Positions 2,104-54,910 are shown, numbered from the stretch's first letter. The stretch is DNA of 64,000 bases from Thermoanaerobaculia bacterium (GCA_035542215.1 DATKLW010000173.1:1717-65716); one strand, 5' to 3'. The notes: generated by a model from the sequence alone, not told the origin. A program made the numbers and translations.

Positions 2104-3518
2104 CGCTTCTTCTCCGACAGCTCGAGGAGGATGCCGCCCGTCGCGGACGGGTGCACGAACGCGACGAGGCACCCGTGAGCGCCCTCGAACGGCTCCTCGT
2201 TCACGAGGCGCACGCCCGCGGCCTTCAGGCTCGCGAGCGTCGCGCGGACGTCCGTGACCTCGAGACAGAGGTGGTGGATCCCGGGCCCCCGGGACGCGAT
2301 CGCCTTCGCGATCGGCCCGTCGGGCGAGGTGGACTCGAGGAGCTCGAGATGCGACTCCCCCACCGCGCGAAACGACGTCACGACCTTCTGCGACGCGACC
2401 TCCTCGCGGTGCTCCTCGACGAGGCCGAGGAGGTCCCAGAACCTCCCGCCCTCTTCGAGCGACGGGACGGAGATGCCGAGGTGGGAGATCTTCGAGACGA
2501 GGGAAAGAGAGGAAGACGAAGATCCGGATTTCTTAGAAGGTGAATGGGGCTCGGCGCCGCCCGTCTCCTGCCGGAGGCGCGCGACCAGGCCAGCGGCGGC
2601 GGAGATCGGGTCCTCGGAACGGCCTTCCACGCGGGTCGCGGCCTCGTCGAGCGCCCCGCTGCCGCCCCGCAGCGTCTCCACCTTTCTAAGAAAGTCTTCT
2701 CTGACCAGCCCTTCGATCCGCTTCACCGTCCGGTCGCGGCGCCGGGCGGCGCCGTGGGGTCCGTCGAGGAACGCCCGGTGCTCCGCGAGCTTCGCCTCCA
2801 GCTCGTCGAGGCCAGCGCCCGACGTCGCGACGGTCTTCACGACCGGCGGGATCCAGGCGCCGTGCTCGCCGAGCTCGAGCATCTGGAGGATCTCCTGCAC
2901 GACGCGGTCGGCGCCGTCGCGGTCGGCCTTGTTCACGACGAAGAGGTCCGCAACCTCCATGAGGCCGGCCTTGATCGCCTGAATGTCGTCACCCATCCCC
3001 GGCGTCAGGACGACGACGCAGGACTCCGCGAGCCGGAAGACGTCGACCTCGTCCTGCCCGACGCCGACCGTCTCGACGAGGACCTCGTCGAAGCCCGCCG
3101 CGTCGAGGACGTCCACGGCGTCCGCCGAGGCGCGCGCGAGGCCGCCGAGGTGGCCGCGCGTCGCCATCGAGCGGATCAGGACGCCGGGGTCCGTGTAGAG
3201 GTCCTGCATCCGGATCCGGTCGCCGAGGATCGCGCCGCCCGAGAAGGGCGAGGACGGGTCGACGGCCACGATCCCGACCTTTCGCCCGCGGGCGCGGGCC
3301 CGCCGCGCCAGCGCCGCCGTGAGCGTCGACTTGCCCGCCCCCGGCGAGCCCGTAAGGCCGGTGACGCGGGCGCGGCCCGTCCGCGGGAACAGGGCCGCGA
3401 GCAGTTCGGGAAACCTGGGGTCGGCGCTCTCGGCCCACGAGATCGCGCGGGCGACGCAGGGGACGCGGCCGGCCAGCACTCCGTCGGCGAGGGCGGCGGC
3501 ACTCTGAGGAGTCGGCAT
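2100..3518 (-). CDS. meaB: MeaB/ArgK G3E-family GTPase fused in one ORF to methylmalonyl-CoA epimerase (VOC fold)
   Basis: - GTPase part: P-loop GSPGAGKST, VETVGVGQ, and NKAD box VVNKADR.
- C-terminal ~135 aa (ISHLGISVPSLEEGGRFW...GIHHLCLEVTD...FVHPSATGGILLELSE) looks like a glyoxalase/VOC epimerase.
- The two parts are joined by the Ser-rich linker PHSPSKKSGSSSSSLSL. Confidence 0.85.
   Translation of the reverse strand: MPTPQSAAALADGVLAGRVPCVARAISWAESADPRFPELLAALFPRTGRARVTGLTGSPGAGKSTLTAALARRARARGRKVGIVAVDPSSPFSGGAILGDRIRMQDLYTDPGVLIRSMATRGHLGGLARASADAVDVLDAAGFDEVLVETVGVGQDEVDVFRLAESCVVVLTPGMGDDIQAIKAGLMEVADLFVVNKADRDGADRVVQEILQMLELGEHGAWIPPVVKTVATSGAGLDELEAKLAEHRAFLDGPHGAARRRDRTVKRIEGLVREDFLRKVETLRGGSGALDEAATRVEGRSEDPISAAAGLVARLRQETGGAEPHSPSKKSGSSSSSLSLVSKISHLGISVPSLEEGGRFWDLLGLVEEHREEVASQKVVTSFRAVGESHLELLESTSPDGPIAKAIASRGPGIHHLCLEVTDVRATLASLKAAGVRLVNEEPFEGAHGCLVAFVHPSATGGILLELSEKKR
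2501..2701. repeat. inverted pair of the dispersed AT-rich motif (arms 2501-2544 and 2678-2701)
   Basis: The arms are GGGAAAGAGAGGAAGACGAAGATCCGGATTTCTTAGAAGGTGAA and CCACCTTTCTAAGAAAGTCTTCTC. Both lie inside the meaB-epimerase ORF. Confidence 0.8.
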
Positions 3519-3563
3519 TCCTCACGAGTGTAGACGAGGCCCGGGGCCTAGAATGTCGCCCCC

Positions 3564-5675
3564 ATGCCCGCCCCGGAGACCCCTCCCGATCTCGTGCCGG
3601 TCCTGTCCGAGATCGCGCGCGTCGCCGGTGAGACGCTGGACCTCAACGAGGTGTTTCACCGGATCGCGACGGCGGCGGGTCGCGTCCTGACCTTCGACGC
3701 GATGACCGTCACGCTGACCGACGAGATCGACGGCTTCGTTCTCTACTCGATCGGAGGCGCCGAGGTCACGGACGAGGCGCGCCGCACGTACTCGCGGATC
3801 GTGCCGCGCGCGGAGTACTCCCTCGGGCTGTGGGAGACGCTCACGAGCAAGGGCGTCATCGACGACGTCGCCGCCGTCTGCGACCGCGCCCATTCCCGCG
3901 ACCGCGAGCTCGCGGACTCCGGCGTCCGCGCGATGCTCCGGGCGCCCCTCCGTGCGGGACCGAAGACGATGGGCTACCTGTCACTCCTCAGCCTTCGGCC
4001 GCGGGCGTTCCGCGCCGCCGACCTCGACCTCCTCGCGCCGATCGCCGACGTCGTCGCGATGGCGGTCGCGCACGCGCGGCTCGCGGCCGGCGAGCAGGAT
4101 CGCCGGCGCCGCTACGAAGCGCTCCAGGCGCTGTCCCCGGTCCTCGCGCGCGCGCTGGACGTCCGGGAGGTGTTCGACGCGATCTCCGGGATCGTCCGGC
4201 CGGTCGTGCCGCACGACCGCATCGCGATCGGCCTCCTGAACGAGGACCGCACCGCCGTCAACGTGTACGCGGTCTCGGGCGAGGGCTTCCCCGAGATCCG
4301 CTCGCCGATCCGCGTCTCACAAGAGGACCTGGCGCGCGTGAACGACTGGTCGACGGAAATCGTCCGCGACGTCGAGTCGGAGCTCCCGCGGGATTCGGAC
4401 CGGTGCCGCCATCTCGCGGCCGACGGCATCCGCTCCTTTCTCAGGGTCCCGATCTTCTTCGAGGGGCAGTGGCAGTTCGCGGGCGGCCTCCTCTTCCTCT
4501 CGCGGACCCCCGGGACGTACGGCGAGGACGACATCCCGCTCGCCCAGCACGTCGCGGACCAGGTCGCGCTCGCCCTCTCGCACGAGCGCCTCGCCGGCGA
4601 GGCCCGGCGGGCCGCCGACGCGGTGAGCGAGGCGAGGAAGCTCGAAGAGCGCGTCGCGTCGCTGACCGAGGAGCTGGCCTCGCGCGAGGGCTTCGGCCGG
4701 ATCGTCGGCGTCGCGAGGAGCTGGAAGGGCGTCCTCGTCCAGGTCTCGAAGGTCGCGCCGACCGAGACGACCGTCCTCCTCACGGGCGAGTCCGGCACCG
4801 GCAAGGAGATCCTCGCGCGCGCGATCCACCGCGCCTCGTCCCGCGCCTCGGGTCCGTTCGTCGCGATCAACGCGGCGGCCCTTCCGGACCAGCTCCTCGA
4901 GTCGGAGCTGTTCGGGTACGAGCGCGGCGCCTTCACGGGCGCGACGGCCGCCAAGCCCGGCCGCATCGAGCAGGCGGCCGGCGGCACGCTCTTCCTCGAC
5001 GAGGCGGGCGAGATGAGCCCCGCGGTCCAGGCGAAGCTCCTGCGCCTTCTCCAGGAGCGCGAGTTCCAGCGCCTCGGCGGGACGAAGGTCCTGAAGACGG
5101 ACGCGCGCATCGTCGCGGCCACGAACCGCGACCTCAAGAAGGCGATCGCAAGGGGGGAGTTCCGCGAGGACCTCTTCTACCGGCTCTCCGTGTTCGAGAT
5201 CGCGCTCCCGCCGCTGCGCGGCCGCGTCGAGGACATCCTCCCGCTCACCGAAGTCTTCCTCGCCGAGCTCGGCCCCGCGATCGGCCGCCCCGTGGCGGGA
5301 GTCTCGAAGGAGGCGAAGGATCTTCTCCTCGCCTACCCCTGGCCCGGAAATGTCCGCGAGCTGAAGAACGCCCTCGAGCGCGCCGCAATCCTCTGCGACG
5401 GGGGCCTGATCACGGCCGCCCACCTTCCCATCTCGGTTTCCGGCCACGAGCCCTCCCGCCCGCAGGCCCCCGGCACGGGGACCGCCCCGGCCTTCCCGCC
5501 CGGCGGCGTCGATCTCGAGTCGCTCGAGAAGGGGTACGTGAAAGAAGCGCTCGTGAAGGCCCGCTTCAACAAGAGTAAGGCCGCGAAGCTCCTCGGCCTC
5601 ACCCGCGCCCAGCTGTACTCGAGGATCGAAAAGTACGGATTGGGAGGAGGAGAGGAAGATAAAGAATTCTCTTAG
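3564..5675 (+). CDS. sigma-54-dependent transcriptional activator with two N-terminal GAF-like domains (FhlA-like architecture)
   Basis: The AAA+ core carries [15 protein letters not shown] and [15 protein letters not shown] (GAFTGA loop). The C-terminal Fis-type HTH is [22 protein letters not shown]. The N-terminal ~350 aa look like GAF repeats. Confidence 0.9.
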
Positions 5676-5772
5676 AAAGGTTTAGGGGGCGGCGCCCGCA
5701 GGCCAGCCGCCGGTCCGGCTCCGGTCGCGCCTCGCACTCTTCACCTTCTAGGGAATTCTCCCTGCTCCTCTC
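5645..5772. repeat. inverted pair of the dispersed motif (arms 5645-5686 and 5737-5772)
   Basis: The arms are GGAGGAGAGGAAGATAAAGAATTCTCTTAGAAAGGTTTAG and CTCTTCACCTTCTAGGGAATTCTCCCTGCTCCTCTCC. The left arm supplies the last codons and the TAG stop of the sigma-54 activator. Confidence 0.8.
5749..5763. promoter_or_regulatory. palindrome TAGGGA-ATTC-TCCCT, candidate activator site, copy 1
   Basis: Inverted hexamers TAGGGA/TCCCTA(G) lie ~60 bp upstream of the candidate -24 element. The site overlaps the dispersed motif. Confidence 0.3.
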
Positions 5773-5813
5773 CGGACTTTTTCCCCTCTCTCCGCCCCCT
5801 TTTCCGGAGTGTT

Positions 5814-5830
5814 TTGGAAGGCCCGAGGCC
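5814..5830 (+). promoter_or_regulatory. weak sigma-54 promoter candidate, copy 1
   Basis: TTGGAAGGCCCGAGGCC has GG and GC at consensus 12-nt register, but the flanking bases fit poorly. It lies ~35 nt upstream of ATG 5864. Confidence 0.3.
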
Positions 5831-5863
5831 CCATCTTCTCCGTGTAAGGAAAAGGGGGACGAC

Positions 5864-6163
5864 ATGAAGAACACCGGCAACACGAACGGCGGCAGCAAGG
5901 TTCCCGCGGGCTTCTACTTCAACAGGAAGAACTGGGAGATCGTCACCATCAGCGGCAAGAAGGGCGGCGTTCTGCCCGGAGACGAGAAGTCCGACTATCT
6001 GAAGGTCCCCGCCGTCGCGATGCTCGCCGGCGCCCCCATGCTCGGGGCCGCCTTCGTGGTCTTTCTCCCCGTGATCGGCTTCGCGCTCCTCGCCAAGGCC
6101 GCCTGGAAGAAGGCCTCCCGCGCGGTCGAGACTCCGAAGCCCGCTCCGGTCCGCCACAACTGA
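5864..6163 (+). CDS. small single-pass membrane protein, paralogue 1 (unknown family)
   Basis: 99 aa with an SD-like AAGGAAAAGGGGGA before the ATG. It has a conserved N-terminus (VPAGFYFNRKNWEIVTISGKKGG) and one hydrophobic helix (MLGAAFVVFLPVIGFALLA). A terminator hairpin lies downstream. Confidence 0.7.
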   Translation: MKNTGNTNGGSKVPAGFYFNRKNWEIVTISGKKGGVLPGDEKSDYLKVPAVAMLAGAPMLGAAFVVFLPVIGFALLAKAAWKKASRAVETPKPAPVRHN

Positions 6164-6213
6164 GAACGCCGTCCCCACGCGTTCCGGCCGCGTTGCCACG
6201 CCGGATGACCGAG

Positions 6214-6240
6214 ACGAGCCGCCGACGGGCGGCTCGTTTC
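6214..6240 (+). terminator. rho-independent terminator candidate after small gene 1
   Basis: ACGAGCCGCC-GACG-GGCGGCTCGT followed by TTTC. Confidence 0.6.
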
Positions 6241-6256
6241 GCGTTAGCCGCCCGGT

Positions 6257-6292
6257 TCTTCACCTTCTAGGGAATTCTCCCTATCTCCTCTC
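6257..6292. repeat. single copy of the dispersed motif (pyrimidine strand on +)
   Basis: TTCTTCACCTTCTAGGGAATTCTCCCTATCTCCTCTC. Confidence 0.8.
6268..6283. promoter_or_regulatory. palindrome TAGGGAATTCTCCCTA, copy 2 (perfect)
   Basis: It sits at the same position relative to the second small gene. Confidence 0.3.
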
Positions 6293-6333
6293 GGGAATCG
6301 TTCCCCCGCTTCCGCGCCCTTTTCCGGAGTGTT

Positions 6334-6350
6334 TTGGAAGGCCCGAGGCC
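6334..6350 (+). promoter_or_regulatory. weak sigma-54 promoter candidate, copy 2
   Basis: An identical TTGGAAGGCCCGAGGCC lies upstream of ATG 6384. Confidence 0.3.
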
Positions 6351-6383
6351 CCATCTTCTTGATGTAAGGAAAAGGGGGACGAC

Positions 6384-6677
6384 ATGAACAGCAACACGAA
6401 CGGCGGATCCAGGGTTCCCGCGGGCTTCTACTTCAACAAGGCGAACTGGGAGATCGTCACGATCAGCGGCAAGAAGGGCGGGCTTCTGCCCGGAAACGCG
6501 AAGACCGGCTACTTCAAGGTTCCCGCCGGCGCCATGCTCGTGGCCGCCCCTGTTCTCGGCGCCGCCTTCGTCATCTTCCTCCCCGTCATCGGCTTCGGGC
6601 TCCTCGCCACGGCCGCCTGGAAGAAGGCGTTCAGCACGGCCGAAGCCCCCAAGCCCGCTCCCGCGCGTCAGGACTGA
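6384..6677 (+). CDS. small single-pass membrane protein, paralogue 2 (about three quarters identical to 5864..6163 by eye)
   Basis: 97 aa with the same SD and the same upstream ~125 bp as paralogue 1. Sequence: VPAGFYFNKANWEIVTISGKKGG...VLGAAFVIFLPVIGFGLLA. Confidence 0.7.
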   Translation: MNSNTNGGSRVPAGFYFNKANWEIVTISGKKGGLLPGNAKTGYFKVPAGAMLVAAPVLGAAFVIFLPVIGFGLLATAAWKKAFSTAEAPKPAPARQD

Positions 6678-9699: not shown

Positions 9700-9707
9700 G
9701 ACGGGTC

Positions 9708-13520: not shown

Positions 13521-14657
13521 TCAGGCCTCCTTCCGCGGTTCCTTCGAAGGCCCTTCTTCCGCCGTCCCGAACTTCTTCGACGCGGCCCAGCCCGCGCCGA
13601 GGAGCGCGCCGGCGACGAGGCCCGCGACGCCCGTCGCGACCGGGGCGACCTTGCCCATCGGGGCGTGGAGCGGGGCGTACGTGTCGGGCGGCGTGGGCCG
13701 CTCGATGTCGACGGTGTCGTGGAGCGGCTTGCGGAACGCGAGCGTCTGCTCCGTGCAGCCGAAGCACGGGTGACCGATCCCGATCGGCCACGCGTCGGGC
13801 ACCTCGGCGAACGGGAGGACCGAGCAGTTCGCGTGTGTCGCCGGGCCCTTGCAGCCCGTCTTGTAGAGACACCAGCCCTGCCTGTGGCCCTCGTCTCCGA
13901 ACTTCTGGACGAAGCGGCCGGCGTCGAAGTGGGCGCGGCGCGGGCAGTGCTCGTGGATCGTCCGGCCGTACGCGAATTTCGGCCGGCCCTTCTCGTCGAG
14001 CGCCGGGAGCGTCCCGAGCGTCGCGAACTGCAGGACCGTGCCGAGGAGGTTGTACGGGTTCGCCGGGCAGCCGGGGATCGTGACGACCGTCTTGCCCTTG
14101 AGGACCATCGGGGCGCCCGTCGCTCCGGTCGGGTTCGGGTCGGCGGACGGAATGCCGCCCCACGACGCGCACGAGCCGATCGCGATGATCGCGCCGGCCT
14201 TTCCCGCGACGTCGTTCAGGATGTCGACGGCCGTGCGCCCGCCGACCTGGCAGTAGATGCCGTTCTCCTTCGTCGGAATCGCGCCCTCGACGACGAGGAC
14301 GTACTTGCCCTCGTGGTCCTTCATGGTTTTCTTCAGCGCGGCCTCGGCCTGGTGGCCGGCCGCTGCGAAGAGCGTCTCGTGGTAGTCGAGCGAGATGAGG
14401 TCGAGGATCAGCTCCGCGACGTCCGGGTGCGAGCTGCGGAGCAGCGACTCCGTGCAGCCGGTGCACTCCTGGAAGTGGAGCCAGATCACCGACGGCTTCA
14501 CTCCCTTGACGGCCGCCTCCGCGAGCCGCGCGGAGAGCGCCGCAGGGAGCCCGACGGCGGCGCCCGCCATGAGCGCGACCTTCACGAAATCGCGCCGGTT
14601 GGAACCCTCAACGTCGACGTGGAGCGACTCTGCGTCGCTTGTACCGTCCAGATACAT
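13521..14657 (-). CDS. hybO: [NiFe] hydrogenase small subunit, group 1, Tat signal and C-terminal membrane anchor
   Basis: In frame with track ORF 13521..14840. The ATG at 14655-14657 lies behind GGAGG. Motifs: SNRRDFVKV, WLHFQECTGCTESLL, GSCASWGG, GCPANP. Confidence 0.95.
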   Translation of the reverse strand: MYLDGTSDAESLHVDVEGSNRRDFVKVALMAGAAVGLPAALSARLAEAAVKGVKPSVIWLHFQECTGCTESLLRSSHPDVAELILDLISLDYHETLFAAAGHQAEAALKKTMKDHEGKYVLVVEGAIPTKENGIYCQVGGRTAVDILNDVAGKAGAIIAIGSCASWGGIPSADPNPTGATGAPMVLKGKTVVTIPGCPANPYNLLGTVLQFATLGTLPALDEKGRPKFAYGRTIHEHCPRRAHFDAGRFVQKFGDEGHRQGWCLYKTGCKGPATHANCSVLPFAEVPDAWPIGIGHPCFGCTEQTLAFRKPLHDTVDIERPTPPDTYAPLHAPMGKVAPVATGVAGLVAGALLGAGWAASKKFGTAEEGPSKEPRKEA

Positions 14658-34743: not shown

Positions 34744-34777
34744 CGGCCCGGCGGCGACGCCGGGCCGTTTTCTATTT
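34744..34777. terminator. bidirectional terminator hairpin between the TonB-receptor and GT39 genes
   Basis: CGGCCCGGCG-GCGA-CGCCGGGCCG followed by TTTTCTATTT. Confidence 0.65.
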
Positions 34778-39440: not shown

Positions 39441-39490
39441 ACCCGCTGGCTTTCGCGCCGGCCTTCTGACATTCTTCCGCCGCAAACCCC

Positions 39491-39826
39491 ATGGAACTCG
39501 CGCTCCAGGACGACGGAAGCGTCACGGTCGTCACGTTGTCGGGCGACCTCGTCATCGGCGAGGCCGAGGCTCTCTTCAAGAGGACCGTCAGCCGTCTTCT
39601 CGAGGAAGGCCGGGTGCAGCTCGTCGTCGACTGCAGCGGCCTGCGCTACGTCGATTCATCCGGCCTCGGCTCTCTCGTGCGCGCGCTCACGACGTCCCAG
39701 CACGAAGGCGGCGGCGCGAAGCTCCTCGGCGTTCCGGCGACCCTCCGCAAGCTCCTCGAACTGACGAAGCTCGATTCCGTCTTCGAGAGTTTCGACAACC
39801 GCGACCAGGCCGTCTCCAGCTTCTAG
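39491..39826 (+). CDS. STAS-domain anti-sigma-factor antagonist (SpoIIAA-like)
   Basis: 111 aa. Motif LVVDCSGLRYVDSSGLGSLV contains the phosphorylatable Ser context. Confidence 0.85.
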   Translation: MELALQDDGSVTVVTLSGDLVIGEAEALFKRTVSRLLEEGRVQLVVDCSGLRYVDSSGLGSLVRALTTSQHEGGGAKLLGVPATLRKLLELTKLDSVFESFDNRDQAVSSF

Positions 39827-39849
39827 ACACGGCGCTCCGGCGCCGGGCA

Positions 39850-44465: not shown

Positions 44466-44476
44466 CCGAAAACACG

Positions 44477-44503
44477 AGCGCCCCGGCGGCGGGGCCGGGG
44501 CGC
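44477..44503. terminator. GC-rich hairpin between convergent genes (bidirectional terminator candidate)
   Basis: AGCGCCCCGGC-GGCGG-GCCGGGGCGCT forms an 11-bp perfect stem followed by TTTCC. It lies between the M50-HlyD stop (44465) and the repeat-peptide stop (44539). Confidence 0.55.
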
Positions 44504-44538
44504 TTTCCTGACGCGAGGAAGAACGTGAAGCGCGCCGA

Positions 44539-44973
44539 TCAGTCGTTCTGCGTCGAACGCGCGTTCAGCGTCCGCGGAGCCGCCTGCGCGCGGGTCGCAT
44601 TGAGCCGCGGAGCCGCCTGAACACGGGTCGCCTGGACCCGGGGGGCCGCCTGCGCGCGGGTCGCATTGAGCCGCGGAGCCGCCTGAACACGGGTCGCCTG
44701 GACCCGGGGCGCCGCCTGTGCGCGGGTCGCATTGAGCCGCGGAGCCGCCTGGGCACGGGTCGCCTGGACCCGGGGGGCCGCCTGCGCGCGGGTCGCGTTG
44801 AGCCGCGGAGCCGCCTGAACGCGGGCGCTCGCGACCTTGGCCGACGTCGCCGGCGTCACGGCCGGGTTGTTGCCGAGGTTGCTGACGCGGATCTCACCCA
44901 TCTCCTGGCCCGTCGCCTCCTTGATCTTCGCCTTTTGCTCGTCGGTCAGTTTGATTCGAACCTCGTTTGCCAT
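44539..44973 (-). CDS. tandem-repeat peptide/protein: 40-aa Lys/Glu-rich leader-like N-terminus + 8 x 11-aa R(A/V)QAAPR(V/L)(Q/N)AT repeats
   Basis: In frame with track ORF 44539..45030. ATG 44971-44973 lies behind AAAGAGGAGG. Sequence: MANEVRIKLTDEQKAKIKEATGQEMGEIRVSNLGNNPAV... followed by the repeats. No signal peptide, TM helix or Cys. Confidence 0.75.
   Translation of the reverse strand: MANEVRIKLTDEQKAKIKEATGQEMGEIRVSNLGNNPAVTPATSAKVASARVQAAPRLNATRAQAAPRVQATRAQAAPRLNATRAQAAPRVQATRVQAAPRLNATRAQAAPRVQATRVQAAPRLNATRAQAAPRTLNARSTQND
44572..44835 (-). repeat. 8 contiguous 33-bp tandem repeats (two alternating subtypes, 66-bp period) encoding the 11-aa units
   Basis: On the + strand the two unit types alternate with only a few substitutions. 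One type is CCGCGGAGCCGCCTGAACACGGGTCGCCTGGAC and the other is CCGGGGGGCCGCCTGCGCGCGGGTCGCATTGAG. Confidence 0.9.
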
Positions 44974-45038
44974 GGTCTGCCTCCTCTTTCGTCTTTCGGT
45001 TTTGCTTTCGTCTTCGCGATGGCCAGGCAAACCTCAAC

Positions 45039-45054
45039 TGCAAGAGGGGGGCCA
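45039..45054 (-). promoter_or_regulatory. sigma-54 (-24/-12) promoter candidate for the repeat-peptide gene
   Basis: The minus strand reads TGGCCCCCCTCTTGCA, with GG and GC at the exact consensus spacing of TGGCAC-N5-TTGCA. It lies ~65 nt upstream of the ATG. A sigma-54 activator gene is directly upstream. Confidence 0.65.
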
Positions 45055-45151
45055 GAACCGATCCGGCCGCCCGCCTCGTGCAAGTGCTTGAGAAAGCGTC
45101 GAGGACCGCCCGCGGCCGCTATGCCAGCTCGATGACTTTTTCAACTTCGGT

Positions 45152-45162
45152 TGACTGAGTCA
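45152..45162. promoter_or_regulatory. perfect palindrome TGACTGAGTCA, candidate enhancer (UAS) site
   Basis: The palindrome lies ~100 bp upstream of the -24 element. An additional TGACT half-site sits at ~45132. Confidence 0.35.
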
Positions 45163-45175
45163 CCCCATCGTCCAT

Positions 45176-46552
45176 TCAGAGGCGGTGCTTCCGGCAGAGG
45201 TACTTCATCTGGTTCGCGTCGAGGCCGAGCGCTTCGGCTGCACGGGCCTTGACGCCTCCGGCGCGGGCGATGGCCTGGCTCACGAGCTCCTTCTCGAATC
45301 TCTTGACCGAGATGGCGAAGGAGAGCCCGGGGGGAACCGGTTCGCCGGCACCGGAAGCGCGGCTCAGGGTTCCCGGCAGGTGCTCCGGACCGATCGTGTC
45401 CCCGTCCACCATCAGCGTCAGCATCTCGACGAGGTGCTCGAGCTCGCGCACGTTTCCGTGGAACGGGTGTCTCGCGAGCGTCTCGAAGGCCGCCGGCGAG
45501 AACGTCTTCGGATCGCGGCCGTGACGCGCGGCCGCCCGCGCTGCGAAGAAGTCCACGAGGAGGGGGACGTCCTCGCGCCGCTCCCTCAGCGGCGGGATCC
45601 TCAGGGTGACCGTGTTGAGGCGATAAAAGAGGTCGTTGCGGAACGTCCCGGCTGCCACGCGCTGCTCGAGGTCTTCGTTCGTGGCCGCGACGAGCCGGAT
45701 GTCGACGTGGATCGTCTTCGTCCCGCCGACCCGCTCGAAGTCGTGGCGCTCGAGGACGCGCAGGAGTTTGGCCTGGACGGCCGGCGAAAGCGTCGCCACC
45801 TCGTCCAGGAACAGGGTCCCGCCGTGTGCGAGCTCGAACCGTCCGGCCCGGGAGGCCACGGCGCCGGTGAAAGCGCCCCGCTCGTGGCCGAAGAGCTCGG
45901 ACTCGGCGAGCGTCTCCGTGAGCGCGGAGCTGTTCACGGCCACGAACGGACCGGCCTTCCGCGGACTGCCCCGGTGAATCGCCTCGGCCACGAGCTCCTT
46001 GCCCGTCCCGCTTTCGCCGGTCACGAGGACCGTCGCGTCGGTGGGCGCGACCTTCTCGATGAGGGCGAAGAGCGCCCGCATCCCCGGGCTCTCGCCCACG
46101 AGCCCGCCGTACGACTCGCGCCTGAAAACGTCCTCCTTCAGCGCGCGGTTCTCGGCAAGGATTCGGTGCCGCTCCATGGCCCGCCCGAGGACGTGCAAAA
46201 GGTCCGACTTCTCGAGAGGCTTGCGGAAGAAATCGAACGCCCCCATTTCGATGGCCTTGAGGGCCCAGCGGCGTTCCTTTTCGGCCGTCATGACGACGAC
46301 GGTGGCATCCGGCTGTCGCTGCCGGATGGCCTGCAGCAGGCGGAGGCCCTCTTCCGCCTCGCCCGAGGGCGGCAGCCGAAGGTCGAGGAGATAGACGTCG
46401 GGCTCGAGCTCGGCGAGCCTCAGCCCCTCGACGGCATCCCGCGCCGAGTGGACTTCGAATCGTTCCCGGAGCGCCCACACGAGCTGATCGAGGAGGAGCG
46501 AGTCGTCCTCGACGACGGCGAGACGCCCCTCCACCCCTCGGCCCGGGCCCAC
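45176..46552 (-). CDS. sigma-54-dependent response regulator (NtrC family: REC + AAA+ + HTH)
   Basis: The receiver carries DVYLLDLRLPP. The AAA+ domain carries [15 protein letters not shown] and [15 protein letters not shown]. The C-terminal HTH is RAAEALGLDANQMKYLCRKH. Confidence 0.93.
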   Translation of the reverse strand: MGPGRGVEGRLAVVEDDSLLLDQLVWALRERFEVHSARDAVEGLRLAELEPDVYLLDLRLPPSGEAEEGLRLLQAIRQRQPDATVVVMTAEKERRWALKAIEMGAFDFFRKPLEKSDLLHVLGRAMERHRILAENRALKEDVFRRESYGGLVGESPGMRALFALIEKVAPTDATVLVTGESGTGKELVAEAIHRGSPRKAGPFVAVNSSALTETLAESELFGHERGAFTGAVASRAGRFELAHGGTLFLDEVATLSPAVQAKLLRVLERHDFERVGGTKTIHVDIRLVAATNEDLEQRVAAGTFRNDLFYRLNTVTLRIPPLRERREDVPLLVDFFAARAAARHGRDPKTFSPAAFETLARHPFHGNVRELEHLVEMLTLMVDGDTIGPEHLPGTLSRASGAGEPVPPGLSFAISVKRFEKELVSQAIARAGGVKARAAEALGLDANQMKYLCRKHRL

Positions 46553-46555
46553 GGC

Positions 46556-47248
46556 TTAGACCCGCCGCCCGCGTGCGGCCGGAAGCGGCAGCAGCAGACG
46601 CACGCACGTGCCCTCGCCCCCGCTCCTCACCTCGACGTCGCCGCGGTGGTGGCGCAGGATCCTGCGGGCCGTGTAGAGCCCGAGCCCCACGCCTCCAGGC
46701 TTCGTCGTCTGGAACGGCCGGAAAAGGCGCCGCCGCACGAACTCGTCCGCCATTCCAGAACCATCGTCTTCGACCTCGACCACCGCAAAGTCCCGCCTGC
46801 CGCGACGTTCGACGCCCGTCCGGACCGTCACGCAGCCAGCCGCGGCTTCCTGGGCGTTCTGGACCACGCTCTGGATCGCCTCGCGCAGGTAGTAGGGGTC
46901 GCCCCAGACCACGGGGACCTCTGCGAAGCTCGTGCTCATCCGTGGCGCGGATCGGCCGCGGGGCCGGGACGTCCGAAGGACCTCCTGCAGCAGGTCGTTC
47001 AGCTCGAGCGGGACCTTGATGAGGACGGAGTCCCGGTGAGCCGACCAGCTCCGCGCGATCCCGTCGAGCTTCTGGACGGTCGCCTGCAGGAGGTCCGTGG
47101 CGCTGCGCCTGAAGTCCGGATCGGCGTAGTGCTCCTCCATGTTCGAGAGGAGAAGGCTCAGCCGAAGCTCGAGGTTCCGGATGTCGTGCAGGAGGACCGA
47201 GTCCTGCGTGGACCGGACGCGGCGTGAGCCGGACGGACGTTTCGGCAT
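46556..47248 (-). CDS. soluble histidine kinase (HisKA + HATPase_c, no sensor/TM domain)
   Basis: H-box LLHDIRNLE. N/G boxes VVQNAQEAA, VEDDGSGM, GGVGLGL. Confidence 0.85.
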   Translation of the reverse strand: MPKRPSGSRRVRSTQDSVLLHDIRNLELRLSLLLSNMEEHYADPDFRRSATDLLQATVQKLDGIARSWSAHRDSVLIKVPLELNDLLQEVLRTSRPRGRSAPRMSTSFAEVPVVWGDPYYLREAIQSVVQNAQEAAAGCVTVRTGVERRGRRDFAVVEVEDDGSGMADEFVRRRLFRPFQTTKPGGVGLGLYTARRILRHHRGDVEVRSGGEGTCVRLLLPLPAARGRRV

Positions 47249-47252
47249 GACC

Positions 47253-48044
47253 TCAGCGCCGGGCTGCCGCCGCGTGGAACGTGAGTTTCACCGCCATGCC
47301 CGGCCGCAGCACACGTTTCGGATCCCGCTTCACCTGCACGATCACCTGCACCGTTCCGCTGCCCGGGTCGATCACGGGGCTGATGAACGAGACGCGACCG
47401 CTCGAGAGCGCGTCCGGGAAACCCGGGGCCTCCACGGTCACCTCGTCGCCCGCCCGCACGGTCTGGAGGCTCGAAGCCTGCAGGTAGGCGCGCGCGAGGA
47501 GCGGCTCGAGCGCCATGACCTTGAAAAGGGGCTTGCTTTCCTCGAGGAGGAATTTCTCGCCCACCCGCGCGTACCGGTCCGCCACGACCCCGTCGAAGGG
47601 AGCCCGCACCACGGACCGGTCGATCACGAGCTTCGCCCTCTCCAGTTCCACGAGGGCCAGTTCGTAGCGCGAATGCTTCTGCTCGAACTCGGCCTCGCTC
47701 GTCAGGTTCAGGCGGCGCAGCTCCTCGTACCTCTTGAGGTCCGCGTGGCTCACGGCGAGCGTCTCCTCGGCGGCCTTCAGGTCCAGCAGGAACTCGCGCT
47801 GGTCCAGCGTGGCAAGCGGCTGCCCCTTCTTCACGAACTCGCCCCTCTCGGCCTGGATCGAGTCGATGACGCCGCTGACCCGGGTCGTCACGGAGACTTC
47901 CTGCTCGACCATGAGGTTCGAGGAGACGGTGAGCGGTTCCGAAGCAGCGGGGGATTCCGACACGCCGGCCAGGGACCGGGCGAGCGCGAAGAAGGAGACG
48001 GCGACGAACGCCCGACCGGAAAGCCGGATTGGATCGCACGTCAT
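47253..48044 (-). CDS. short HlyD/RND-type periplasmic adaptor (membrane fusion protein), no cognate pump adjacent
   Basis: Motifs SGVIDSIQAERGEFVKKGQPLATLD and VRAPFDGVVADRY. N-terminal signal/anchor. Confidence 0.8.
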   Translation of the reverse strand: MTCDPIRLSGRAFVAVSFFALARSLAGVSESPAASEPLTVSSNLMVEQEVSVTTRVSGVIDSIQAERGEFVKKGQPLATLDQREFLLDLKAAEETLAVSHADLKRYEELRRLNLTSEAEFEQKHSRYELALVELERAKLVIDRSVVRAPFDGVVADRYARVGEKFLLEESKPLFKVMALEPLLARAYLQASSLQTVRAGDEVTVEAPGFPDALSSGRVSFISPVIDPGSGTVQVIVQVKRDPKRVLRPGMAVKLTFHAAAARR

Positions 48045-48095
48045 CTTTTCCTCCGGTGTCGGAACGGAATGATATCGAATCGCGACGCCCGCGTT

Positions 48096-49181
48096 TCAGA
48101 TCTTCCAGAACCAGCCCTTCTTCTCGAAGACCCTGAGGACGGCCCACCAGAACAGGATCGTGGCGAGGGCGAACGCGTGCGAGCGGAGCGTGGGATCCGC
48201 GATCCACGAGAAGCCAGAACGGTAGATCCACGCGTGGAGGGTGATCGCCTTCCCCGCCGCGTCCGTCCATTTGACGAGTCCCATCGTCTTGGCGAGGAGG
48301 CCCGAGAGGACGAAGACGAGGAGCGGGTTCGTCCCGAACGTGAAGAACGGCGCGAACGGTCTCTTCACCCGGAGGACGTCGATCACGAGAACGCACAGAC
48401 CGATCGTGAGGAGCGCAGCGCCCGACGTGAAAACGACGTAGGAGGCCGTCCAGAGGTTCTTGTTGATCGGGAGGAAGCGGCCCCACAGGAGTCCCGCGGC
48501 GGTCGCGGCGGCGCCCCAGACGAGAAGTTTCGCGGCCTTCGTCTTCGCGCCCGCGGCGCCTTTCAGCAGGAAGCCCGTGAGCGTGCCCGTGAGCATCGTC
48601 GCGATTGCCGTCAGGGTCGACACGATCCCCTCGGGGTCCCAGCCCTGCGCGTTCTTCCAGAGATGGCCCTTGAGGACCGCGAGGTCCACGGCGCGCTGGA
48701 CGTTGCCCGCGGGCGTGAGGTCGTAGCCCGTCCCGAGGAGGATCCACGTGTGGAGCGCGAGGAGTACGGCGACGGCCGCGGTAACGCCCGCCCACCTCCT
48801 CTTCCAGACGGCCAGCAGGATGCAAGTTCCGAGAGCGTATGCCACACCGATGCGCGGGAGGACGCCGGGGATGCGCAGACGCGAGAGGCGCTCGAGGAAC
48901 GGCACGAACGGGTAGAACGCCATGAACCAGCCGACGAGGACGATCGTCATCCCGCGGCGGAACGCGTGGCGGGCGAGGTCGAGGCGGCTCGCTCCCTGCG
49001 CCATGCGCTTTTCGAGCGAGAAGACGCCCGCGACGCCGACGATGAAGAGGAACCACGGGAAGATGAGGTCCGTCGGAGTCCAGCCGTGCCACTCCGCGTG
49101 GTCGAACGGCCAGTAGAGGTGCCCCCAGTCGCCCGGGTTGTTCACGAAGACCATCCCGACGACCGTCAGGCCGCGGAACAT
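48096..49181 (-). CDS. DUF1624/DUF5009-type membrane acyltransferase (heparan-alpha-glucosaminide N-acetyltransferase-like); 5' end questionable
   Basis: The sequence MFRGLTVVGMVFVNNPGDWG...WHGWTPTDLIFPWFLF is polytopic. The in-frame upstream codons encode ...EKEQRLAALD without any start codon (see findings). Confidence 0.75.
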   Translation of the reverse strand: MFRGLTVVGMVFVNNPGDWGHLYWPFDHAEWHGWTPTDLIFPWFLFIVGVAGVFSLEKRMAQGASRLDLARHAFRRGMTIVLVGWFMAFYPFVPFLERLSRLRIPGVLPRIGVAYALGTCILLAVWKRRWAGVTAAVAVLLALHTWILLGTGYDLTPAGNVQRAVDLAVLKGHLWKNAQGWDPEGIVSTLTAIATMLTGTLTGFLLKGAAGAKTKAAKLLVWGAAATAAGLLWGRFLPINKNLWTASYVVFTSGAALLTIGLCVLVIDVLRVKRPFAPFFTFGTNPLLVFVLSGLLAKTMGLVKWTDAAGKAITLHAWIYRSGFSWIADPTLRSHAFALATILFWWAVLRVFEKKGWFWKI

Positions 49182-49238: not shown

Positions 49239-49375
49239 GGGAGAAGAGGGAAATGAAGATTTTCTTGGAAGGTAAATACACGCGGCAGCAGCAGCGGCGC
49301 GGGCGGCCTCGGATGCGCCGCCCTTCCCCTCTTCACCTTCAAAGAAATTCTTCTCTTTCTCTTCTCTTTCTAAGC
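49239..49375. repeat. inverted pair of the dispersed motif between/into divergent genes (coordinates +/-1)
   Basis: The arms are GGGGAGAAGAGGGAAATGAAGATTTTCTTGGAAGGTAAATAC and CCCTCTTCACCTTCAAAGAAATTCTTCTCTTTCTCTTCTCTTTCTAAGC. Confidence 0.8.
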
Positions 49376-50950
49376 AGCATTCTCTTCGCCCTTTCGTCCT
49401 GCACGACGATCCCCGCTTCACTCCACGTGATGCCCGCGGACGATTCCCTCGCCCGCCACGTCGCGAGGCTCGCGGCGGGCAGCGGGGCGCACATGGGGAT
49501 CGTGGCGCTGCACGTCGAGAGCGGGCGCCGCCTCGAGCTGAACGCCGGCGAGTCCTTCGAGGCCGCGAGCGTCATCAAGATCGCGCTCCTCGCCGAAGCC
49601 GCGGCGCGCGACTCCGAGGGCACGCTCGACCTGACGGACCGCTGGAAGCTCACCGCGAAGGCCGTCGCCGCGGGCTCCGGCATGCTCGACGAGTTCGACC
49701 CCGGCCTCACCCCCACGAACCGGGACCTTCTCTCCCTGATGATCGCGATCTCGGACAACACGGCCGCGAACCGGTTCATCGACCTTTTCGGCGCCGCGGC
49801 CGTCAACGCGAGGATGGAGAAGCTCGGCCTCCCCGGCATCCGCCTCGTCGGGCGCATCCCGGACCGCGGCCACGAGCCCGGCAAGTGGGCGCCGCTCGGC
49901 GTCATCACGCCGGAAGCCGCCGCCGAGTACTACCGGCGCGTCGCGACGCGCACGCTGATCGACCCGGCGTCCGACCGCGTCGTCGCGAAGCTCCTTGCCG
50001 TCCAGCACTCGAAGGACCGCCTCCCCCGCCTCCTCCTCGACGACGCCGCGTCGTCATGGGCCGGCAAGACCGGGAGCTACGGCGGCGTCCGCAACGACTC
50101 CGGCATCCTCACGACGAAGAAGGGCCGCTTCGTTCTCGTCGCGTTCGCGGACGGCATCCCCGACCGCAAGGGCGCCTCGGCGCAGGCGACGCGTGCGATG
50201 GGCGACATCGCCGCGGCGATCGTGAACGCATGGTCGGCGTCGCTTCCGGACGTCGCCCCGGCGCCCGAGCCGCCGGCCGTCCCCGCGCTGCGTCCGGCCG
50301 TCCCGCGGATGGAAACGACGCTCGCCGAGGCGCGCGCGGCGACGCAGCCGTCGGACCTCGTCCGCGTCTACCGCGACACCGACCGGCGCTTCTGGGACGC
50401 GTGGGCGCTCGCCGGCGGCGACACGCGCGACGCCTGCCTCATCCCGATGCCGAACAGCTGGTGGGAGGGATTCCGCCCTTGGAAGATCGAGCCGATCTCG
50501 GCGCTCATCCTTCACCACACGTCGCAGGCCACGGACGAGGAGTGCATCGAGCTCTTTCAGAAGCCCGAGAGCCGCGTCTCGTCGCACTTCCTCGTCGGGA
50601 AAGACGGGCGCCTCTACCAGTTCGTCTCGCTCGAAGACCGGGCCTGGCACGCGGGGCCGTCGCTTCTTCACGGGCGCGTGGCCCTCAACCGGACCTCCGT
50701 GGGCGTCGAGATCACGGGCGACGGGAACAAGTATCCGTTCACGCCGGCGCAGATCGAAACCGTCGTCCGGCTCGTCGGCGTCCTGACGGCGATGTTCGAC
50801 ATTCAGGCGCCGTGGATCGCCGGCCACCAGCACATCGCCCCGGACCGAAAGGACGACCCCGGCGCCCTTTTTCCGTGGAACGATGTCGTCCGGCGGGGGC
50901 TCGAGCTGTCCGAGACCCTGCGCAAAAAGGGGCTCGAGAAGGGGGATTGA
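49313..50950 (+). CDS. lipoprotein: class-A beta-lactamase-like serine hydrolase domain fused to AmpD-type N-acetylmuramoyl-L-alanine amidase (Amidase_2)
   Basis: - Track ORF 49253..50950. The internal ATG (residue 21) gives MRRPSPLHLQRNSSLSLLFLSSILFALSSC with a lipobox.
- Beta-lactamase-like motifs: ASVIK (SxxK), SDN, KTGS.
- C-terminal amidase part: ILHHTS..., VSSHFLV, AWHAG, GVEI. Confidence 0.8.
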   Translation: MRRPSPLHLQRNSSLSLLFLSSILFALSSCTTIPASLHVMPADDSLARHVARLAAGSGAHMGIVALHVESGRRLELNAGESFEAASVIKIALLAEAAARDSEGTLDLTDRWKLTAKAVAAGSGMLDEFDPGLTPTNRDLLSLMIAISDNTAANRFIDLFGAAAVNARMEKLGLPGIRLVGRIPDRGHEPGKWAPLGVITPEAAAEYYRRVATRTLIDPASDRVVAKLLAVQHSKDRLPRLLLDDAASSWAGKTGSYGGVRNDSGILTTKKGRFVLVAFADGIPDRKGASAQATRAMGDIAAAIVNAWSASLPDVAPAPEPPAVPALRPAVPRMETTLAEARAATQPSDLVRVYRDTDRRFWDAWALAGGDTRDACLIPMPNSWWEGFRPWKIEPISALILHHTSQATDEECIELFQKPESRVSSHFLVGKDGRLYQFVSLEDRAWHAGPSLLHGRVALNRTSVGVEITGDGNKYPFTPAQIETVVRLVGVLTAMFDIQAPWIAGHQHIAPDRKDDPGALFPWNDVVRRGLELSETLRKKGLEKGD

Positions 50951-50990
50951 TTTCCCCCCGGCCGTCTCTTATAGGATCTGCCGACCCGGC

Positions 50991-53011: not shown

Positions 53012-53038
53012 GCCCGATTATGGTGTGAGAATCGCCGG

Positions 53039-54910
53039 ATGCGCCACGCCCGCGCCCTGGCCGCCGCAGCCGCCGCCCTTCTTCTCTTCTTCTCATTCGG
53101 AGACATTTCCCGCGCCGCCTCCCCCGCCCCGGTGCAGCCGGAGAAGACCGCCGTCGTCGTCACGGCGGTCCAGGACCTGTTCACGCGGCCGGACGAGACG
53201 TCGAGCGTCGACGACCAGGCGATCCTCGGCGACCGCCTGACCGTCCTCGAGGACGCCGCGGGCTTCGCGAAGGTCCGGACGGCCGCCGGCGAGATCGCGT
53301 GGATTCCCGAGCGGGCGCTCCGCCGCGGCGCCGGCGCGGAGGCGCCCGCGAAGGACGCCAGGTTCGCGCGCGTGACGTCGAATTTTGCGCACATTTACGC
53401 GAGCCCGTCCTTCACGAAGCAGAAGCCGCTTCTCACGGCCCCGGTCGGGGCAAGGATGGAAGTCGGAGATTTCTTAGAAGGTGAAGAGAACCGGGCGAAT
53501 GGGCCGGGCCGAGCGAGTGACGCCTTCTCCTGGGTGAAGGTCCGTCTGCCGGATGCGCGCAACGGTTTCGTCGCCGCACGCGACGTCTCCCTCTTCCCTT
53601 TCAAAGAAAATTCTTCTCTTTCTCTTCCTCTCGGTTCTCCGTCCGACTGGATCGCGTTCGGAAAGCGCTTCCTCGGCGCGCCGTACACGTGGGGAGGGAC
53701 GACGCCGCTCGGATTCGACTGCTCCGGGCTGATGACGCGGATCTTCTCCGAGCACGGCGTGACGCTGCGCCGCAACAGCTACGAGCAGGCGTTCCAGGAC
53801 CCGCAGCTCGTGCCCGTCGCGTTCGAAAAGCTCCGCCCCGGCGATCTCCTCTTCTTCGGCACGGAGGACAAGATCGACCACGAGGCGATGTGGATCGGGG
53901 ACGGCACCGTCCTCCAGGCCACGCGGAACAACGTTCCGGGCGTGCAGGTCACGCCGTTCGACAGCCCGTTCCTGAAACCGCGTTTTCGCTATGCCCGGCG
54001 GCTCAAGAAGACCGAAGAGAAGATTTCTTCGAAAGGTGAAGAGAGCGGCGGGCCGCGCCTCGACGCCGCGAAGGTGCGCCGGCTCGAATCCACACTCGAA
54101 GAAATCTCCCGCGCCAGCGGGGCTCGCTTCGGCATCTGGTTCAAGGACCTTTCGACAGGTCTTTCACTTTCCCAGAATCCCTCACTGGTCATGCACGCCG
54201 CCTCCACGATGAAGACGCCCGTCCTCCTCGAGCTCCTCCGCCGTGTGGACGCGGGAACGGTGAAGCTCTCGGACGAGCTGCCCGTGAAGAACGAGTTCAA
54301 GAGTCTCGTCGACGGTTCGCCGTTCTCGATCGGCCTCGAGGAGAACGACGGCCCGACCGCGGCATACCTCGGGAAGAGCGCCACGATCGGATTTCTCGCG
54401 CGGGAGATGATCGTCCGCTCCTCCAATCTCGCGACGGACATTCTTCTCGCGTTCCTCGGGCCGGCCGACGTCCAGAAGTTCACGGACGAGCTCGGCGCGC
54501 CGACCGTGAAGGTGCGACGCGGCGTCGAGGACCTCAAGGCTTTCGAGAAAGGGCTGAACAACGAGACGGACGCGGCCGGGATGGGCGCCGTGATGGAAGC
54601 CGTCGTCCGGACGCCGAAGCTCTCGGCGGCGGCGAAGGCGAAGGCGTGGGAGATTCTCGCCGGACAGACGTTCAACGAGGAGATTCCGGCGGGCCTCCAC
54701 CCGCAGTCGGGCGCCGTCGTCGCACACAAGACGGGGACGATGTCGACGTCTCAGCACGACGCCGCGATCGTCCGCCTGCCGGACGGCCGCGAATATGTCC
54801 TCGTCCTCCTCGCGAACGACTTCGGCGCGACCGAGGCGGGCCGTGAAAGGGTCTACGCCGCGGCGCGGAAGATGTCGCGGGCGGTCTGGGAGGCCATGAT
54901 CGCGCCCTGA
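53039..54910 (+). CDS. secreted SH3-like + NlpC/P60 peptidase + class-A beta-lactamase-like serine hydrolase fusion
   Basis: The signal peptide ends RAAS. The NlpC/P60 domain carries APYTWGGTTPLGFDCSGLM...DHEAMWIGDG. The C-terminal domain carries ASTMK (SxxK), SSN and HKTGT. Confidence 0.85.
   Translation: MRHARALAAAAAALLLFFSFGDISRAASPAPVQPEKTAVVVTAVQDLFTRPDETSSVDDQAILGDRLTVLEDAAGFAKVRTAAGEIAWIPERALRRGAGAEAPAKDARFARVTSNFAHIYASPSFTKQKPLLTAPVGARMEVGDFLEGEENRANGPGRASDAFSWVKVRLPDARNGFVAARDVSLFPFKENSSLSLPLGSPSDWIAFGKRFLGAPYTWGGTTPLGFDCSGLMTRIFSEHGVTLRRNSYEQAFQDPQLVPVAFEKLRPGDLLFFGTEDKIDHEAMWIGDGTVLQATRNNVPGVQVTPFDSPFLKPRFRYARRLKKTEEKISSKGEESGGPRLDAAKVRRLESTLEEISRASGARFGIWFKDLSTGLSLSQNPSLVMHAASTMKTPVLLELLRRVDAGTVKLSDELPVKNEFKSLVDGSPFSIGLEENDGPTAAYLGKSATIGFLAREMIVRSSNLATDILLAFLGPADVQKFTDELGAPTVKVRRGVEDLKAFEKGLNNETDAAGMGAVMEAVVRTPKLSAAAKAKAWEILAGQTFNEEIPAGLHPQSGAVVAHKTGTMSTSQHDAAIVRLPDGREYVLVLLANDFGATEAGRERVYAAARKMSRAVWEAMIAP
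53468..53632. repeat. inverted pair of the dispersed motif inside the SH3-NlpC/P60 gene (arms 53468-53490 and 53591-53632)
   Basis: The arms are GATTTCTTAGAAGGTGAAGAGAA and CTCTTCCCTTTCAAAGAAAATTCTTCTCTTTCTCTTCCTCTC. Confidence 0.8.
54015..54046. repeat. single copy of the dispersed motif at the NlpC/P60 - beta-lactamase-like domain junction
   Basis: GAAGAGAAGATTTCTTCGAAAGGTGAAGAGAG, translated EEKISSKGEES. Confidence 0.75.

Follow-up and report, generated by a model that had tools for sequence, protein, structure and literature searches.

What does a short AT-rich sequence do that recurs over and over in GC-rich chromosomal DNA? The question is raised by a 64,000-nt stretch from a Thermoanaerobaculia bacterium (GCA_035542215.1 DATKLW010000173.1:1717-65716; hereafter, the window), with a composition of 70% GC, in which a preliminary description had pointed out 15 clear copies of a polypurine/polypyrimidine element. 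The copies (hereafter, arms) occur mostly as convergent pairs, and we tentatively read them as paired, head-to-head recognition sites on double-stranded DNA for a putative lineage-specific DNA-binding protein.

A single motif recurs in the window

The core TTCTTAGAAGG was matched eight times in the window with at most one mismatch, as compared with 0.15 matches expected from dinucleotide-preserving shuffles, and the 17-base pattern TTCTTNGAAN{0,1}GGTGAAGAG was matched four times (0.00 expected). A single consensus fitted all 15 copies of the preliminary description in alignment, and a profile search of the window returned every one of them at E<=0.006, so the recurrence itself is real. Besides these 15 strong copies only a few weak ones were found, and the two strands are balanced, as had been noted. 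The same arms in the same arrangement are present in nine independent metagenome assemblies of strains 99.3-99.9% identical to the window, which removes the earlier concern that the motif could be an assembly artefact.

On the purine strand the consensus consists of an R-rich tail followed by GATTTCTT[A/C]GAAGGTGAAGAGGGG, with TTTCTTNGAAGG nearly invariant. To avoid the bias introduced by search patterns, the consensus was also built from the partner arms of pattern-matched copies; this gave a purine-only tail of at least ~15 bases, then GATTTCTT[A/C]GAAGG(T)GAAGAGGGG, with the same near-invariant 12-base TTTCTTNGAAGG. Each site is asymmetric and ~25 bp long, with the purine tail on its outer side. 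Its sole internal symmetry is TTCT-N-AGAA, the arm centre TTCTNAGAA being a 4+4 palindrome with asymmetric flanks (the short central palindrome is also written TTCTTNGAA). The central step of the arm is always pyrimidine-purine (TA, CG or TG), and such steps are of the kind kinked by DNA-bending proteins. The outer purine or pyrimidine tails differ in length among species, in steps of three when they are coding, and coding tails yield poly-Ser or acidic linkers. Tandem (direct) purine arms were occasionally seen in related loci (L085 5488-5614, L103 5164-5230 and L009 3185-3297), those of L085 being linked by ~70 nt of pure GA-rich sequence; the latter case suggests that slippage can lengthen the purine tails and that there are arrays of sites.

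The resemblance of the arms to translation signals was also followed. The purine arm (for example at 53468-53490 of the window), UUAGAAGGUGA, agrees with a perfect Shine-Dalgarno sequence, UAAGGAGGUGA, at 9 of 11 positions, and the pyrimidine arm resembles the 3' tail of 16S rRNA; no connection of this resemblance to arm positions or orientations was found. The AAGGTGA of the arm is Shine-Dalgarno-like and complementary to the 16S rRNA 3' tail, but the arms lie in either gene orientation, anywhere in genes and at the wrong spacing from candidate starts, and a role as a ribosome-binding site was rejected.

Arms are arranged as convergent pairs

Pair geometry was analyzed in 813 kb of sequence, comprising the window and 101 high-GC loci, with 342 profile matches in total. 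The comparative loci were 8-kb blocks picked for an exact motif match, which biases the densities and conservation values derived from them. Among neighbouring arms less than 400 bp apart, 113 pairs are convergent (purine strands pointing at each other), 10 are divergent and 20 are direct. Paired arms number 233 and lone arms 99, and many of the latter showed a degenerate partner on inspection. The same was true in the window, where the preliminary description had recognized convergent inverted pairs and counted five of them; the arrangement is confirmed and the count rises to eight, because three copies taken as single have degenerate partners (16615-16643, 23462-23486 and 54096-54111).

The centre-to-centre distance (n=112) has a minimum of 61 bp, a mode at 73-85 bp and a second broad group at 111-190 bp, and the gap between convergent arms is bounded below at ~41 bp. 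Intergenic pairs peak sharply at 73-74 bp. No helical phasing at 10-11 bp (10.5-bp periodicity) was found in the 112 pair distances, and a weak 9-bp periodicity (p about 0.001-0.01) was dismissed after multiple testing. An all-frame stop module was considered as well, given that the purine arm covers two frames, but the distances favour 1 modulo 3 rather than the required 2 modulo 3.

The sequences between the arms are mutually unrelated. An all-against-all comparison of 112 spacers gave only 21 similar spacer pairs, mostly from orthologous or paralogous genes and otherwise with matches of 14-20 nt, in agreement with the earlier statement that dissimilar spacers argue against a classical miniature inverted-repeat transposable element (MITE). 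Arms flanking tRNA-sized small RNA genes were likewise rejected, as the spacers are unrelated and many are ordinary coding sequence.

Arms originate in place and are imposed on genes

Genes were called by a codon-usage method trained on the same data, which agrees with independent calls on metagenome contigs; outside the window the gene calls are our own codon-usage calls. In total, 57 of 106 pairs lie within a single gene and 38 are intergenic, which corresponds to a ~3-fold enrichment of intergenic DNA, because only 11% of the DNA is non-coding. Intergenic pairs were found between tandem, divergent and convergent genes, with a density per kb ~2-fold higher between convergent genes. The 57 intragenic pairs are evenly distributed along genes, and the preference for gene ends and linkers that had been suspected from the window does not hold in this larger sample. 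Although most copies in the window had been placed inside open reading frames (ORFs), some are outside real genes. In the independent gene calls the beta-lactamase gene begins at 49427, so that the 49246/49326 pair is intergenic, and two further intergenic arms, at 5734 and 6257, each precede a small gene (99 aa and 97 aa, respectively).

Intragenic arms use all six reading frames, as the variety of frames seen at the outset had indicated. Three of the six frames of the arms contain stop codons; where the motif itself would introduce a stop (TAG or TGA in the purine strand, TAA in the opposite one), the frame is used by variants that lack it. The TAG provided by one arm does terminate a gene, as proposed (Table 1). 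The seven codons at arm centres have a log-odds of -0.36 compared with a gene mean of +0.39, and rare codons such as TTA, GAA and GGT are forced into conserved enzymes, in a genome whose third positions have a GC of ~90%. The six frames and the disfavoured codons bear out the view that conservation is at the nucleotide rather than the protein level.

Alignment to family models showed the host proteins to be colinear with them. MurQ residues 3-278 correspond in a single stretch of equal length to profile positions 22-297 of 300, with the pair included, and MeaB residues 8-296 correspond to positions 5-296 of 300 in one stretch across the arm. HypF residues 7-761 align to positions 2-740 of 741, with 16 extra residues in total compared with a pair region of 66 residues. 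In a Ser/Thr kinase family, arms 91 nt apart encode EDFLEGEE and YSFEEI around an ordinary RFEREAxLLAxLNHPxIAxIY (beta3 to beta4), and these arms are present in several species and also in two paralogues of one genome. The right arm in IspE encodes the conserved IHLSKKIP stretch. The arms are therefore substitutions and not insertions, and their codon cost, at unchanged protein length, indicates that the motif is imposed on the DNA and that codon choice gives way to it. The sites originate and are kept up in place by point substitution, even in conserved genes at the cost of poor codons.

The motif is a conserved feature of one lineage

At least 115 stretches match the 17-base pattern in species-representative genomes. 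Among the matches listed, ~99 of the 115 lie on contigs of 63-73% GC from ~27 metagenome-assembled genomes (MAGs) labelled Thermoanaerobaculia or Acidobacteriota; the remaining ones are single matches, three of them on GC-rich contigs from other phyla and most in AT-rich genomes, in which some matches would arise by chance. On a contig of 3.67 Mb the matches are scattered round the chromosome. The spread over ~27 MAGs shows that the motif is a conserved feature of the lineage and not peculiar to this contig. The host class is uncultured and widespread in soil and sediment. A scan of viral contigs gave only single chance matches, in contigs of low GC, on which basis a phage or transposon origin was rejected. 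In a literature search the motif appeared in no paper in a relevant context, nor were Thermoanaerobaculia linked with inverted repeats or Acidobacteria with uptake sequences.

Orthologous loci were compared at 85% identity (L119) and at 75-76% identity (L053 and L064), and in these relatives the genes for MeaB, MurQ and the NlpC/P60 protein keep their pairs at unchanged positions. In general, species with 70-90% identity share arms at orthologous sites. In 109 orthologue or paralogue comparisons, ~95% of the arms were still recognisable and arm cores were 83% identical as compared with 73.5% for the flanks, a difference that is inflated to a degree not known, because the loci were retrieved via exact motif matches. 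Turnover was also observed: the orthologous region in L053 is without the left arm and spacer of the 49246 pair (an indel of ~95 nt), and the weak partner at 54096 is not kept in L064, where a partner lies elsewhere within range. The latter case suggests that a partner is needed somewhere within range rather than as a particular sequence.

Competing explanations

The arms are complementary, and could pair as a long-range stem in single-stranded nucleic acid (mRNA, or DNA in replication or transfer) whose fold is read by a nuclease, an HUH-type transposase, as for doublets of repetitive extragenic palindromic (REP) sequences known as REPINs, or a regulator. The capacity to pair that the preliminary description had proposed is there: the segment 49236-49375 folds at -59.3 kcal/mol (z = -3.9), most pairs fold arm to arm, purine and pyrimidine tails lengthen the pairing, and the unit of REPINs and of bacterial interspersed mosaic elements (BIMEs) is itself an inverted doublet. 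It is selection on this pairing that the data do not bear out. Partner arms have an identity of 0.646, as compared with 0.653 ± 0.008 for shuffled partners, and though ~35% of aligned positions differ between partners no column covaries (the free central base gave 0.41 observed vs 0.35 expected, p=0.08); G·U mismatches number 59 in the sense and 57 in the antisense-only class, with no strand asymmetry. The lack of covariation and of G·U asymmetry disfavours an RNA stem. A benefit of pairing to a stem would moreover predict short loops, and instead the loops of 27-150 nt have a lower bound; divergent pairs would fold equally well, yet are nearly absent; the arms have no REP-like hairpin of their own; and tRNA and Rfam scans of the window gave no matches. 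We consider a selected stem decidedly unlikely. Still a little further down the scale, and improbable in our judgement, is a transcription signal such as a bidirectional terminator, pause or insulator, in which polymerase from either side would meet a purine arm on the non-template strand and then a C/U-rich, G-poor tract favouring Rho loading or release. The symmetric design would give the same order of signals both ways, the pyrimidine arm and its tail are indeed G-poor and C/U-rich, and pairs fill short intergenic regions between convergent genes at several loci, at ~2-fold the density found between tandem or divergent genes. Over half of the pairs, however, are intragenic (including those in ispE, murQ and hypF) and evenly spread, others lie between divergent genes, and lone arms show no bias in orientation relative to genes (17 vs 16). 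No sigma-70-like promoter was found at the arms in a scan, and a terminator scan found no canonical stem plus U-tract spanning a pair; the two sites that it did report, fewer than the 3.9 expected by chance, are short stems on the minus strand at the weak pair-8 arms.

A non-autonomous mobile element of the MITE or Rickettsia palindromic element (RPE) type, or a segment that is flanked by recombinase sites and able to invert or be excised, is very unlikely. The 113 convergent pairs do have the form of terminal inverted repeats, with arms of ~25 bp and a unit of ~100-200 bp that resemble MITEs, and the ~95-nt indel at one intergenic pair comprises an arm and the spacer. Against this, neither arms nor spacers disturb the colinearity of the proteins with their family models (MurQ, MeaB, HypF and the kinases), the spacers in kinase, IspE and MurQ genes are ordinary coding sequence, interiors are unrelated between copies, and the outer ends are fuzzy purine tracts at which no target-site duplication was seen. 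Substitution with no added residues refutes a MITE- or RPE-type origin for the tested loci, and with it the in-frame mini mobile element initially suggested. As for inversion or excision, all nine strain-level assemblies have one orientation and no excision, though consensus assemblies would hide a minority orientation. The stem, the transcription signal and the mobile element each conflict with at least one direct test. An uptake signal, akin to the uptake signal sequences (USS) of Pasteurellaceae and the DNA uptake sequences (DUS) of Neisseriaceae, is unlikely too, but deserves more weight than these as the main rival. Here a putative competence machinery would prefer motif-bearing DNA and recombination would spread it, so that copies build up by molecular drive; to account for the pairing, the receptor would have to contact either two inverted sites or the DNA bent between them. 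In favour of such a signal are the lineage specificity of the motif and its strong excess in both orientations; it arises by substitution inside conserved genes in all frames with tolerated peptides, its positions are stable between species, it is enriched in intergenic DNA, and the viral contigs lack it beyond single chance matches; all of this matches the properties described for USS and DUS. The earlier suggestion of such a sequence fits the in-place evolution, frames and positional stability, but leaves the near-obligate convergent pairing and the spacing unexplained. Known uptake signals are single sites, whereas 113 of 143 close neighbours are convergent here and most lone arms have degenerate partners; inverted DUS or USS pairs sit close together as terminators, whereas no pair here is below 61 bp centre to centre; and the arm density of the window, ~0.25 per kb, is below the values of known uptake sequences.

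Proposed paired sites for a DNA-binding protein

Among the candidates raised in the preliminary description, protein binding is the best supported. Each arm fits the consensus independently of its partner, and the relative orientation is fixed. Consistent with binding are the 113/10/20 distribution of orientations, the 61-bp minimum and the intergenic peak at 73-74 bp, together with the lack of a strand-specific signature, the lineage specificity and the near-invariant 12-base core. In this scheme, each arm would be read on duplex DNA by a lineage-specific protein, with two reading units acting together across the spacer: two bound protomers, or one dimer, would hold both sites while the intervening DNA is bent, bridged or wrapped. 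Selection would act on an estimated several hundred pairs per genome, and the role could be chromosome-wide, either in nucleoid organisation or as a mark of 'self' read by a DNA-processing machine.

Several points weigh against protein binding. Rigid small protein-held loops usually show 10.5-bp phasing, and the lack of such phasing in the pair distances argues against a rigid small loop, which would leave wrapping, flexible bridging or a tracking mechanism that needs two opposed sites. Several hundred sites of 12-25 bp are demanding for selection alone, and molecular drive could suffice with no host function. A simple regulator would not be expected to have so large a footprint, above 25 bp and with a purine tail. 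The inflated excess of conservation in arm cores, mentioned above, belongs here as well.

Comparison with known repeats and signals

The element fits no repeat family with which it was compared: in its mode of evolution it resembles an uptake sequence and in its layout a REPIN/BIME doublet, and it lacks defining features of both. USS and DUS share with it the lineage specificity, the over-representation in both orientations, the presence in coding DNA by substitution in several frames, the stable positions and the intergenic enrichment. The unit here, however, is a convergent pair 61-190 bp apart, where uptake sequences have one site or a tight terminator hairpin, and the motif is longer and has a purine tail. 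The REP/BIME/REPIN sequences of proteobacteria are similar in their hundreds of dispersed copies and in forming inverted doublets with a defined relative orientation, and REPs are thought to bind host proteins (IHF, gyrase and RAYT). REPs, by contrast, are extragenic, whereas over half of the pairs described here (57/106) lie within single genes, with independent calls in agreement for the window loci; each REP is a GC-rich hairpin, whereas the arms have none of their own; and REP doublets lie close together and are copied whole, whereas here the arms arise in place, around host sequence that is unrelated from one spacer to the next.

RPEs, Correia elements and the repeat units of pneumococcus (RUP) are also palindromic repeats that are tolerated inside ORFs and translated in different frames. 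RPEs and MITEs, however, insert and thereby add residues, and their copies have a common interior; the arms leave the proteins colinear and only the tails expand, for example into poly-Ser. The highly iterated palindrome HIP1 (GCGATCGC) of cyanobacteria is short, genome-wide, present in coding DNA and found at orthologous positions, and its function is debated; in contrast to this 8-base perfect palindrome with no paired geometry, the arms are of ~25 bases, asymmetric and paired. The consensus has no GTTRRRY as in integron attC sites, it is the sequence and not the pairing that is conserved, and pairs lie inside housekeeping genes. Nor does the element have the form of an intrinsic terminator: no GC-rich stem-loop plus U-tract spans a pair, and intragenic pairs make up half of the total. 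The motif was also compared with IS5-type terminal repeats, the CodY box, hix sites and the IHF consensus, none of which matches it well. Being not single-site and not extragenic, with no arm hairpin and an interior that is not copied, the element is placed in the broad class of genome-wide short DNA signal sequences.

Arms of the window and neighbouring features

The arms of the window are listed by locus in Table 1.

Table 1 Positions and contexts of the arms in the window (L053, L064 and L119 are the orthologous loci compared in related species).
Arm	Position	Strand	Context	Remarks
Pair 1, left	2513-2550	+	MeaB-methylmalonyl-CoA epimerase linker, SPSKKSGSSSS	nhmmer E=1.9e-5; kept in L119
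Pair 1, right	2675-2704	-	MeaB C-terminal region, REDFLRKVE, inside equivalog match, no insertion	kept in L119
Pair 2, left	5660-5690	+	last residues and TAG stop (5673-5675) of sigma-54 activator gene (3564-5675)	
Pair 2, right	5734-5765	-	intergenic, ~100 nt upstream of 99-aa gene	centre-to-centre 75 bp
Lone	6257-6289	-		copy of the 5734-5765 arm
Pair 3, left (weak)	16615-16643	+	HypF, QKSSFEGQ	E=0.15 and E=3.6 in two profile searches
Pair 3, right (strong)	16785-16813, pyrimidine tail to 16826	-	HypF C-terminal Kae1-like domain, PLLSYLLRKSS	E=7.6e-5
Pair 4, left	23331-23362	+	TrmJ/SpoU-type methyltransferase gene (~23183-23914), EDFLGKVKR	
Pair 4, right (degenerate)	23462-23486	-	TTCGAAGAAATC, read as FEEIS	E=0.98
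No inverted partner	35984-36004	-	PMT_2/TPR membrane glycosyltransferase gene 34772-36667 (-)	
Pair 5, left	38340-38369	+	MurQ (37648-38505) C-terminal helices, EDLLGRVSW	kept in L053
Pair 5, right	38432-38462	-	MurQ, LHLSRKKF	centre-to-centre 83 bp
Pair 6, left	49246-49277	+	divergent intergenic region between genes 48096-49181 (-) and 49427-50950 (+)	
Pair 6, right	49326-49360, long pyrimidine tail to ~49375	-		E=5e-6; centre-to-centre 74 bp, the canonical intergenic spacing
Pair 7, left	53458-53488	+	between SH3 domains of SH3-NlpC/P60-beta-lactamase-like protein (53039-54910), DFLEGEE	kept in L064
Pair 7, right	53589-53613, pyrimidine tail to 53632	-	SH3-NlpC/P60-beta-lactamase-like gene (53039-54910)	
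Pair 8, left	54010-54046	+	NlpC/P60 to beta-lactamase-like domain linker, EKISSKGEES	kept in L064
Pair 8, right (very weak)	54096-54111	-	CTCGAAGAAATCTCC, read as LEEIS	E=23

The weak arm at 16615-16643 overlaps conserved FEGQ residues and, taken alone, may therefore be a chance match. The arm at 35984-36004 has a marginal same-strand relative at 36185-36209 (E=1.8), and this is the only locus of the window with direct nearby copies. That relative corresponds to one of three weaker copies in the preliminary description (36186-36205); the other two, at 13537-13560 and 36108-36124, were not recovered. The lone arm at 6257-6289 is explained by a ~520-bp tandem duplication (5765-6163 and 6285-6677, 83-87% identity), which copied both a small gene (~99 aa, no Pfam match) and the arm upstream of it.

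A single uninterrupted ORF of ~460-475 aa encodes both MeaB, the methylmalonyl-CoA mutase-associated GTPase, and methylmalonyl-CoA epimerase (2100-3479, up to 3521, on the minus strand of the window; 3773-5197 in L119). The junction has no stop codon and no canonical start, and its linker is made of a motif arm and a poly-Ser tail. An independent assembly also has the fusion, called as a single gene of 472 aa, and so does a species with 85% identity.

Two peptidoglycan-related fusions, which are unusual, lie near MurQ and are kept in related species (L053, L064). The gene at 49427-50950 joins a class-A beta-lactamase-like domain to an N-acetylmuramoyl-L-alanine amidase, and that at 53039-54910 joins SH3-SH3-NlpC/P60 to a second beta-lactamase-like domain. 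In L053 the MurQ/amidohydrolase block directly adjoins the orthologue of the window gene 48096-49181, which implies that ~8.7 kb (39351-48096 of the window, with STAS, GAF, RND-like, peptidase M50 and two-component sigma-54 system genes) is absent there or located elsewhere.

Tandem repeats of other kinds were also observed. A 66-nt repeat (3.8 copies, 93% matches, with a 33-nt sub-period) occupies 44572-44825 inside a small minus-strand ORF, and its copy number varies between near-identical strains, L001 having one unit fewer and a product of 122 aa as compared with 144 aa. Arrays of a 126-nt repeat at 29294-29836 (4.4 copies) and 30258-30580 (2.6 copies), with ~70-75% matches, both lie in the minus-strand gene 28874-31063, which presumably encodes a repeat-domain protein.

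Implications

The combination found here is unusual: strict head-to-head pairing, and rare codons placed in conserved enzymes, across ~27 species-level genomes of an uncultured class. For annotation the motif is a hazard, as its tails give rise to linkers of poly-Ser or poly-Glu, to fused genes (MeaB-epimerase) and to ORF starts that mislead. It would also be a natural marker with which to bin and follow the lineage in metagenomes. The pairs might be cis-elements of an undescribed chromosome-wide system, with a dedicated protein that bridges or wraps 60-190 bp at an estimated several hundred places and a pressure to retain the sites that suffices to overwrite codons of housekeeping genes, or else an equally novel paired-site uptake or self-recognition signal; we hold this broader proposal to be doubtful. 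If true as an uptake-type signal, it would be the first outside Proteobacteria and the first to need two sites. USS/DUS, REP/BIME, Chi and HIP1 are each a genome-wide short signal that pointed to DNA-handling machinery, and if a cognate protein exists in Thermoanaerobaculia, the motif would be a direct handle for finding it.

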